This document shows, in pieces, positions 10,801 through 13,800 of a stretch of DNA of 15,345 nucleotides. The stretch lies in the IMG/VR virus record IMGVR_UViG_2529292919_000012; one strand, given 5' to 3'. This DNA comes from a virus. Lineage: Duplodnaviria; Heunggongvirae; Uroviricota; Caudoviricetes. Made by a program: the position numbers. How positions within the stretch are numbered: position 1 is the stretch's first letter; each line of letters starts with the position of its first letter.

Positions 10801-13800
10801 CAAATCACGACTCCGCATCAAAGTCATCGCAGACGTTCCAGACTCCCGCCGCCGCGACCTCGACAACATCCTGAAAGGTTTACTCGACTCCCTTATCCAC
10901 GCCGGATTTGCGGAAGACGACGAGCAATTCGATGACATTCGCGTAATTCGTGGTGTGAAAGTACCAGGCGGACGGCTTGGAATAAAAATCACCGAACTGG
11001 AGAACGCATGAACGCCACAATTCAAACGATACTAGAGCTTCTTATCCAGACACGAGGCAATCAGACCGAAGTGGCGAGGATGCTTTCCTGCGCAAGAGGA
11101 ACAGTGCTCAAGTACAACCGAGACAGCAAAGGCGAGCGTCATGTAATAGTTAACGGCGTCCTGATGGTCAAACAGGGCAAGAGGGGAAGACGATGAGACT
11201 CGAAAGCGTAGCTAAATTTCATTCGCCAAAAAGCCCGATGATGAGCGACTCACTACTGGCCACAGTTTATTGGTTTTCGTAACTGAGTCATTTTATTATT
11301 TTATTGCAACTTTTAATCTTTTATAGTGCGAAATAAATGGAGCTGGCATTCATTTCGCACTTTATGTTTTTGTTGGACTTATGTTATTTTGATTGAATTC
11401 AATTCAGTTAAAAAAAGAAGGTGATTGCTCCATTTATAAATGAATAGTCATCCCCTGTCTTGAATTCTGATGTTACTTTATTAAATGCTAGTGTGAAGGC
11501 TACAGGTGCATACCCAATTGTTGCGCCAACTTGATATTCATCAACAGTTTTGTTTAGCGATACTGTTGTTTGTTTCGTCTGTATTGTTTTTCCTTCGAGA
11601 GTATAGTTGCGATTGACATCTCGTCTTTCCATACCTGCAAAAATCTTGTATTTGAATCCGCTTGTATCGGACATATGCATTAAACCACGGGGAGCCAGCA
11701 GACCAAAGCCATTATCCGAATTGAAGGTTTTATCATTACCAATGGCAATGGTTGCGCCATATGCTACATATTGAAATAAGTTTCCAGTAACAGCAGAAAC
11801 TTCAGGGTATAATCCAACATTAGCACCTAAAATATCCATACTTGGTGTCATGGATAGCATCCCTTTTACAGTATAACCGTAGCGATTCTCTATTTGATCA
11901 TCCCATGCATGATATTTTTCTGCCCCAATAATCTCATGAGCTTTATTTTGTACTTTCTGACCGCCTGCGTCGGGGCCAACAACACCTATGTCAGTACCTA
12001 ATCGATAGCGAATCCAGTCATTCGCAAGGGAGTTCCATTCAATACCAGTGTGAGTGTATGCACTAAAAGCTCTGTCTCCAGTTACAGCTGTGTTGTGTCT
12101 TTTATTACTGCCTGATGGAGAGTAAATATCTTGCGCAATATGGAGAGATAATTGGCTCGAGTCTGAGATATCGTGGCTATATCCCAGAAATAAGCCTTGT
12201 GAGTAATCATCTCTGTTTTCATGTTTATTGCCATAAATATCATTAAGTATTGGTTGAAACTTCCCTGCATCATCATTTGCTAATGATAATGCAAGGCTGT
12301 TCGCGATAGCTGAACACGTGGTAAATGACAGAGCAATAAAGACGCCAGCGATGACACTTTTTTTCATATGTTATTGTCTTCCTTTTTTTGAATGGTGCGC
12401 GTATTTTACATACATGAGTTTGTAATACAAGGTGCGTAATCAATATGATGTTTTATAATTGCGTGAGACAATTGATTTATTCGTTTTTTATTGTGGTTTT
12501 TATTATCTTTTAATGTAGCGGTGTTTTTATTAAGTGTGTTTGCGTGGTGTTTTATGTTTTTTATAATTTTTATTTTATTAAATTTAAAAGCATTAGTAAT
12601 GGCTATTCTATATAGCAATATAAGAACTGTTACAAAAAAAGGGGGGCAATTACAGGTAGTTATGGATGATGAGTGAAACAGATATTGGAGAACCGGGGAA
12701 TGAATGATGTCTGAGTCTTATATATCAGAACTCCTTCGCTGTCGCTGGGGGCTCCTGTGCTTATGTCGTTTCCCCGATTCGGTTTTGAACGATTACCGAA
12801 TGTTGAAGAATTATGCCAAAATATAGAAAGGATTTACTGCATGAATACCCAATATTTACAGTATGTTCGTGAGCAACTTATGGCAGCTACTGCTGACTTG
12901 AACGGAGCAACGAAAGGCCAGCTCGAAGCCTGGCAGGAGCATGCACAATTTGATACTGGTACATACAAACGAAAGAAGCCGCGCATTCTGGATGTGGTAA
13001 CTGGCAAGATGATTACGCTGGATAATACGCCGACTTCCGGTAAGCAGTCGTACGCAAAAGGTTCATCCATTGCTTTGGTCAGCCCGGTTGAATTCTCAAC
13101 CTCTTCATGGCGCCGCGCGGTTTTGTCTCTCGATGAACATCAGAAAGCATGGTTGCTTTGGTGTTACAGCGAAAGCGTTCGATGGGGGCATCAGGTCACC
13201 ATAACGCAATGGGCATGGAGCGAGTTTAAAGATTTGTTAAGTAACAGAAAAATTGCAGGTAAGACACTGGATCGCCTGAAGACGTTAATCTGGCTGGCTG
13301 CACAGGATGTGAAGAGCGAACTTGCAGGGCGTGAGGCCTATGAATACCAGACACTGGCATCATTGGTGGGAGTGACAACAAAAAACTGGTCCGAGACATT
13401 TACTGAACGCTGGGTTGCAATGAAGCACATTTTTCTACAGCTTGATAGTGATGCTTTATTGCTTGTGACGAGAACACGTTCAAAACAAAAGGCAGCATTT
13501 TTACAGCAAAATATTGCAAAACTGGATTAAAAGCCATATACTTCATGCAAATTTGGTATGTTGTAAAAAATGTATAAACCCGCTGCCGAGTGGGTTTTTT
13601 TTATGCCCTGAGTTGTACTTGTACGGTAAACATGCTGGCTGCTATGTAATAGAGTTTTTTTAGCCTGTAACCTCTTGACGGCATTGAATTGCTTTTGTTA
13701 TGAGTTGTAAGCCAATGTTATCATCTTGTATTGGGGTGGTTATGAAGGATGGTGCGCTGCTCAGGAGTTCTTCACTTTTTATTGCCTACATGGGATGCCT

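Follow-up and report, generated by a model that had tools for sequence, protein, structure and literature searches.

Mosaic joints and the extra genes called morons have reportedly been described for the lambdoid phages HK97, HK022 and HK620. In the antiterminator Q of phage lambda (Q-lambda; PF03589; PDB 7UBM, 4MO1), an HTH four-helix body (residues 61–113 and 153–207) binds the Q binding element, a zinc-ribbon arm (residues 114–152) contacts RNAP and sigma region 4, and the N-terminal segment (residues 1–44) folds into a torus in the RNA-exit channel (PMC9388147). Within the loaded complex, residues 1–11 touch the zinc-binding domain of RNAP, deletion of residues 1–38 abolishes antitermination, and the torus segment folds only if it is tethered by a body bound to RNAP and NusA (PMC9388147). 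The solved Q-lambda fragments comprise residues 38–207 and 61–207.

Truncated Q genes next to lpxR have already been annotated twice. Escherichia phage 434, which is viable and plaque-forming (PMC9119081), carries the coding sequence CPT_434_64 (UMO75328.1), described in GenBank as [quoted passage not shown]. The genome announcement (PMC9119081) is silent on this stub, so that its mention is confined to the GenBank annotation, and our literature search found no paper linking phage 434 with lpxR. In E. coli E2348/69, the same stub is the PGAP/RefSeq pseudogene E2348C_RS28210, an incomplete antitermination protein "missing C-terminus". LpxR itself has been studied in EHEC and EPEC as an immune-evasion factor and vaccine antigen (PMC6863877), and work cited in that paper describes lpxR expression as Ler/Pch-dependent.

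Here we analyzed a prophage-derived stretch of 15,345 nucleotides (hereafter the window) from the IMG/VR virus record IMGVR_UViG_2529292919_000012. The original prediction, made from the sequence alone, held that a lambda-type Q gene directly after ninH is truncated at a recombination or deletion joint to unrelated DNA. We find that the Q stub is an already annotated pseudogene remnant, real but ordinary, which lies at a classical lambdoid mosaic joint beside a known moron and reveals no new mechanism. To the existing annotation we add the exact position of this joint (11253 is the last perfect base, followed by a patch of 12/17 similarity), a second joint at 12689/12690 in a rusA 3' end, the finding that stub and cassette are linked strictly one to one in 620 genomes, and the two left-flank contexts in which the stub occurs.

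Results

Translation of the window gives an ATG open reading frame (ORF) for a peptide of 29 residues, MRLESVAKFHSPKSPMMSDSLLATVYWFS, the start codon of which overlaps the ninH stop in an ATGA motif (Table 1). In alignments with Q of lambda (NC_001416, from 43886) and of HK620, the two reference genes match the stub at 61/61 nucleotides, that is over codons 1–20 plus one nucleotide, and the first mismatch is at 11254 (ORF nt 62). The perfect lambda-like Q start after ninH is thereby confirmed, down to an exact 20-residue peptide, as is the divergence that ends in a stop after 29 codons. The breakpoint, originally placed at roughly 11255–11262, was right to within a few bases, with perfect identity ending slightly earlier and imperfect similarity reaching to about 11270. 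A perfect 61-nt match to Q placed directly after ninH, as in HK620, cannot be a product of chance. Since 61/61 identity gives way to 12/17 and then to chance-level similarity, and since a Pfam profile search with the stub gave nothing whereas the Q gene downstream matches PF06323, the 29-codon ORF is very probably a remnant, without function, of the 5' end of a lambda-family antiterminator gene Q, and it forms the left edge of a mosaic joint. The exact 29-residue product is seldom called as a protein: its cluster has three members, named "partial" or "434 antiterminator-like".

Table 1. Features around the two joints, in window coordinates.
Feature	Position	Strand	Evidence or remark
ninH	11008..11196	+	Last intact gene of the HK620/HK97-type nin region; PF06322 Phage_NinH, E=1e-22
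5' remnant of lambda-family Q, 61 nt	11193..11253	+	No difference from the most frequent intact Q allele; comparison with 5' ends of 108 intact Q genes
29-codon ORF made by the joint: MRLESVAKFHSPKSPMMSDS + LLATVYWFS + stop	11193..11282	+	No Pfam match
Joint zone	11254..11270		Imperfect match to Q nt 62–78, 12/17; beyond, chance-level similarity
AT-rich segment	11271–12689		GC 0.24–0.45 vs about 0.50 in nin genes
Two tandem copies of ATTTTATT (8-bp unit)	11290..11305		Sequence comparison; one copy in phage 434
Hairpin region (15-bp stem at 11326–11360)	11326..11374		Inverted repeat between stub and lpxR stop
lpxR, lipid A 3'-O-deacylase, cassette cargo	11408..12367	-	PF09982, E=7e-40; annotated LpxR in phage 434 and E2348/69
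AT-rich lpxR upstream region, right cassette end	12368..12689		GC 0.24–0.34; no rusA-ylcG-Q prophage homology left of 12690
DLP12-type rusA 3' remnant GAACCGGGGAATGAATGA (...EPGNE*)	12690..12707	+	17/18 identical to rusA 3' end in a rusA-ylcG-Q prophage
ylcG-like small gene	12704..12826	+	ORF; YlcG family annotation in phage 434 and E2348/69
Intact Q, Q82 family	12841..13530	+	PF06323, E=1e-91, profile positions 1–216 of 220; "Q82-like" in phage 434
Late-promoter-like site TTGCAA-17-TATACT	13514–13542	+	Promoter scan
Intrinsic terminator with T run	13576–13597 (region 13514..13607)	+	Just after the Q82-type gene; terminator annotated at the same place in phage 434

The short stretch beyond the last perfect base deserves separate treatment. 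None of the 30,356 other positions in the window, both strands included, matches Q nt 62–78 as well as 11254–11270 does, and the binomial probability of a 12/17 match is about 1e-4 to 7e-4; this similarity is therefore probably real. We rejected an origin from a diverged functional Q allele, because the 108 intact Q genes from IMG/VR include no intermediate 5' end and because second codon positions account for four of the five differences from Q. On the nin and Q-start side, the query is matched by about 100 sequenced lambdoid phages, and these matches stop at about 11260–11265; homology to lambda and HK620 ends at ~11263–11270, and the DNA that follows is the lpxR cassette.

We searched for the right-hand parent of the joint, an lpxR flank that occurs without the stub, in four ways. 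An exact search for the hairpin in contigs of one genome per species found none, and a search of the same contigs with the LpxR protein returned a single Citrobacter locus with 73% amino acid identity and a non-homologous 3' flank. The phage collection yielded the two records of phage 434 only, and in 5,426 complete E. coli genomes the lpxR flank was always linked to the stub. Since this parent was not found, we infer, rather than observe, that the joint formed by illegitimate recombination at the short patch of imperfect similarity (11254–11270). As to the microhomology and repeats that had been proposed for inspection, the 12/17 patch is a candidate for the former. Around the cassette, a search for direct repeats or target-site duplications gave nothing beyond short sequences present twice, no longer than chance would produce. 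One 12-nt pair, GATGATGAG(C/T)GA at 11237 and 12665, was discarded, as it coincides with neither joint.

To the right of the stub lies the LpxR-like gene that had been predicted; its product matches PF09982 over profile positions 2–320 of 323. Two properties mark this cassette as a moron, namely its foreign base composition (Table 1) and its absence from both rusA-ylcG-Q prophages and ninH-Q phages. A strong hairpin lies downstream of lpxR, and the promoter scan made no convincing call. The hairpin stem folds with -19.1 kcal/mol (z=-5.6) on the minus strand and -16.4 kcal/mol (z=-3.0) on the plus strand; a T-rich tract follows on the plus strand, and the U tract is poor on the lpxR strand. A simple terminator scan made no call at this hairpin, and an Rfam search of 11193–11407, from the stub to lpxR, returned no match at E<=1. 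The structure may serve as the 3' hairpin of lpxR and as a rightward terminator. Between stub and hairpin, the window and E2348/69 share a tandem duplication of the 8-bp unit ATTTTATT, as do all of the 44 copies inspected from IMG/VR.

The cassette ends at a second joint (12689/12690). Its marker is an 18-nt remnant with the last codons and the stop of a second rusA gene, immediately before ylcG, and megablast matches of the rusA-ylcG-Q prophage class begin at window positions 12690–12696. The rusA gene that the window itself contains farther upstream (10648–11010) is another allele. We saw no annotation of the second-rusA remnant in the records of phage 434 or E2348/69. The Q-like gene farther right was correctly predicted to differ from the first: by profile search it belongs to PF06323 and not to the lambda-Q family, and its full-length profile match together with the late-promoter-like site and terminator downstream places it with Q82. 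This Q82-type gene is the working replacement for the truncated lambda-type Q and supplies late-gene control.

Both edges of the cassette are thus gene stubs, one from the 5' end of Q-lambda and one from the 3' end of rusA, and this order is impossible to obtain by deletion within one lambda-like genome. The event is a recombination between phage lineages plus an acquired foreign AT-rich cassette. Of the two origins first considered for the replaced Q and late-promoter region, recombination holds, complete with a replacement Q, promoter and terminator; simple deletion fails on the second rusA 3' end.

The joint is not private to the window. The proposed comparison with related prophages retrieved it from phage 434 (OL657226), with the same stub, hairpin, lpxR, ylcG and Q82-like gene, from E2348/69, the corresponding region of which is 99.8% identical to the window, and from 620 complete E. 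coli genomes. Positions 11193–11289 are identical in phage 434 and E2348/69. The lpxR 3' flank alone (11272–11420) occurs in 620 of the 5,426 complete E. coli genomes, exactly once in each; stub plus flank occurs in 620, and so does the lpxR-ylcG-Q joint. In this sample of 5,426 genomes, stub and cassette are inseparable. The same linkage holds in IMG/VR, where 44/44 contigs with the hairpin also have the stub, and among sequenced phages the block is present only in the two 434 records.

What does vary is the DNA to the left. The stub occurs behind two non-homologous flanks, one of the ninH type (the window and HK620-type nin regions) and one of the ninI type (lambda and 434). The ybcO-rusA-ninH-Q block of HK620 and window positions 10361–11263 are 97% identical. 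Loci of the ninI type become homologous to the window at 11182; in those of the ninH type, homology reaches farther left, to 10361 or 7479, or to 10506 in one locus. The 48 stub copies in IMG/VR loci divide into 23 of the ninH type and 25 of the ninI type; among the complete genomes, 189/620 have the ninH-type flank, counted when an 801-nt query was covered to 80% or more. Intact Q genes, too, are found behind each of the two flanks. The linkage of stub and cassette indicates a joint that arose once and was inherited or spread as one block (stub, lpxR, ylcG and Q82-type Q), and the two flanks would be explained most simply by at least one later crossover in the 61-nt stub or at its edge.

This distribution also raises the possibility that the stub has been kept because it is useful in cis, with its 61 nt serving as a homology arm for recombinases of phage or host that swap the lpxR/Q82 block into phages with a lambda-type Q. 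One crossover within the shared 61 nt accounts most simply for the identical stub-plus-cassette behind two non-homologous flanks that also precede intact Q, and the stub is exactly the commonest Q allele, though intact alleles are polymorphic in that stretch, with SNPs at ORF nt 30, 45, 51 and 54. Past use as a crossover site does not show, however, that the stub was retained for that reason; moreover, 61 nt is short for a RecA-type exchange, no SNP pattern within the stub marks a crossover point, and the flank swap might itself have been an illegitimate event at a gene boundary. We therefore regard retention as a homology arm as a tentative possibility, and one that is compatible with the stub being a protein-coding pseudogene.

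Whatever its use in cis, the Q stub cannot be an antiterminator and has no role in antitermination, because it keeps only residues 1–20 of Q, followed by nine unrelated codons, and has no Pfam match. With its end at codon 29 it has neither the HTH body nor the zinc-ribbon arm, and its torus segment is incomplete, comprising helix 1 and part of the loop. No cognate PR', qut site or terminator follows the stub; the lpxR cassette comes next. Since the Q ribosome-binding region and the ATGA coupling to ninH are retained, the stub would still be transcribed and is probably translated whenever the early-right operon is read, and the resulting peptide would be inert.

A different outcome would be that the 29-codon ORF is a genuine small gene, the peptide of which uses Q-lambda residues 1–20 to counter, for instance, the Q protein of lambda-type competitors. 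The retained ribosome-binding site and translational coupling would suit such a gene, as would an ORF that is intact in 48/48 copies, the viable phage 434 included, and the contact that Q residues 1–11 make with the RNAP zinc-binding domain (PMC9388147). The short ORF is indeed conserved in related phages, which the original prediction had named as the mark of an independent gene. However, because the whole block, non-coding flank included, is conserved equally well (99–100% identity), this conservation gives no sign of an independent gene or of selection on the ORF. The 48 copies contain one synonymous and one non-synonymous variant (T24I, in four copies), a divergence too low to separate neutrality from constraint. 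The nine-residue tail comes from out-of-context DNA, the peptide has no family match and is rarely reported by gene callers, and the Q torus segment folds only when tethered to a body on RNAP and NusA. We consider a genuine small gene very improbable, and more improbable still its specific version, in which a retained 29-residue micro-protein (torus helix 1) was exapted as an anti-Q decoy against the Q-lambda-dependent antitermination of competing phages; if true, the decoy would give the lpxR/Q82 prophage an edge over lambda-type phages.

Finally, the idea of a simple internal deletion in one lambda-like prophage or of an assembly artefact, which could appeal to the decay of the window prophage (an IS21-family insertion and frameshifts in rusA and a membrane-protein gene), is refuted by the second rusA 3' end, ylcG and other-family Q on the right side, an order that no lambda-like deletion yields, and by phage 434 virion DNA and 620 independent complete genomes, all of which have the identical joint.

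Several other features of the window prophage came to light. An IS21-family element lies in 5530–7479 on the minus strand, with ORFs for IstA (6374–7396, rve domain) and IstB (5595–6377, PF01695, E=8e-112). It is missing from the otherwise 99–100% identical E2348/69 prophage and splits a toprim/DnaB-like (helicase) replication gene into 4741–5544 and 7453–8580; the window prophage is likely replication-defective. The upstream rusA is frameshifted by an extra A in an A-run at 10752 relative to E2348/69, the rusA copy of which is also a PGAP pseudogene with an internal stop. In the nin region, between ninF-like pieces, 9416–9922 is an intact HNH endonuclease ORF (168 aa; PF13392, E=1e-19), which may be a homing-endonuclease insertion; the matching stretch of E2348/69 has only a partial, C-terminally truncated HNH pseudogene called by PGAP.

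On the right side of the window, the region 13700–14458 contains a +1 and a -1 single-base indel (14045 and 14194), about 150 nt apart, relative to phage 434 and E2348/69. They break a gene for a 248-residue membrane protein into three ORFs and reflect either real decay or homopolymer sequencing error. The stretch 14713–14917 (+) has a match to Rfam STnc100 that scores 41.4 bits (E=3.4e-6) and so falls short of the gathering score, 47; it ends in a terminator hairpin, and the nanS-p-like esterase gene lies downstream. This esterase, of the SASA family, begins near the right end of the window, in agreement with the predicted nanS-p-like gene, and was seen in the nearly identical E2348/69 prophage. 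The EPEC small RNAs PasD1 and PasD2 are structurally related to STnc100 and lie <10 kb from lpxR and a Q gene (2026 preprint, doi 10.64898/2026.05.13.724894); 14713–14917 is probably a PasD copy.

Discussion

The preferred reading, in which the stub is a non-functional Q remnant at an old joint, suggests the following history. An AT-rich cassette of ~1.44 kb, with lpxR in reverse orientation, would have become linked to nt 61 of a lambda-type Q in an ancestral lambdoid phage. The far edge of this cassette would have come to lie within a rusA gene, 18 nt from its 3' end; next in order are ylcG, a Q82-family Q and the late promoter and terminator of the latter. The completed block may then have been exchanged between nin regions of the ninH and ninI types through a homologous crossover within the stub or at its edge. 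By analogy with lambda biology, transcription from PR to the Q82-type gene would pass through the hairpin and run antisense across lpxR, presumably by N-modified polymerase.

The stub can thus be taken as a clean, datable scar of lambdoid mosaicism. Through a single joint of this kind, the lpxR immune-evasion cassette found in EHEC and EPEC prophages and in the classical phage 434 would have entered the lambdoid pool, and this joint would since have been passed between different nin-region backgrounds. For practical purposes, the stub-lpxR junction is a specific marker of the module, present once per genome in the 620 of 5,426 complete E. coli genomes that have it. A caution concerns annotation, in which automatic gene calling may label the stub an "antitermination protein".

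Among described systems, phage 434 and E2348/69 are the nearest to the window, with the same 29-codon ORF and joint, followed by the same lpxR, ylcG and Q82-type Q. Phage 434 differs from the window in its left neighbor, which is ninI (a phosphatase) instead of ninH, and in having one copy of ATTTTATT instead of two. The stub and lambda Q have in common their initial 61 nt (20 residues), the context for ribosome binding and a location after the nin genes; unlike lambda Q, the stub lacks residues 21–207, which comprise the HTH body, the zinc-ribbon arm and what remains of the torus segment, and it has no PR' or qut downstream. The right part of the block resembles the DLP12-like rusA-ylcG-Q arrangement (quuD-type): from the last rusA codons onward, window positions 12690–12900 show ~82–83% homology to this arrangement as present in 492 complete genomes of E. 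coli. In contrast to that arrangement, the window has an lpxR cassette and a Q-lambda stub in place of nearly all of that rusA.

The likeness to the lambdoid morons of HK97, HK022 and HK620 lies in a compositionally foreign extra gene with a flanking hairpin, inserted between conserved phage genes, and the likeness to lambdoid mosaic joints in novel joints at or near gene boundaries with short imperfect similarity. The window departs from these morons in two respects. Its joints cut inside genes, in codon 21 of Q and in rusA six codons ahead of the stop, and leave two recognizable stubs, and its cargo is transcribed against the early-right operon.
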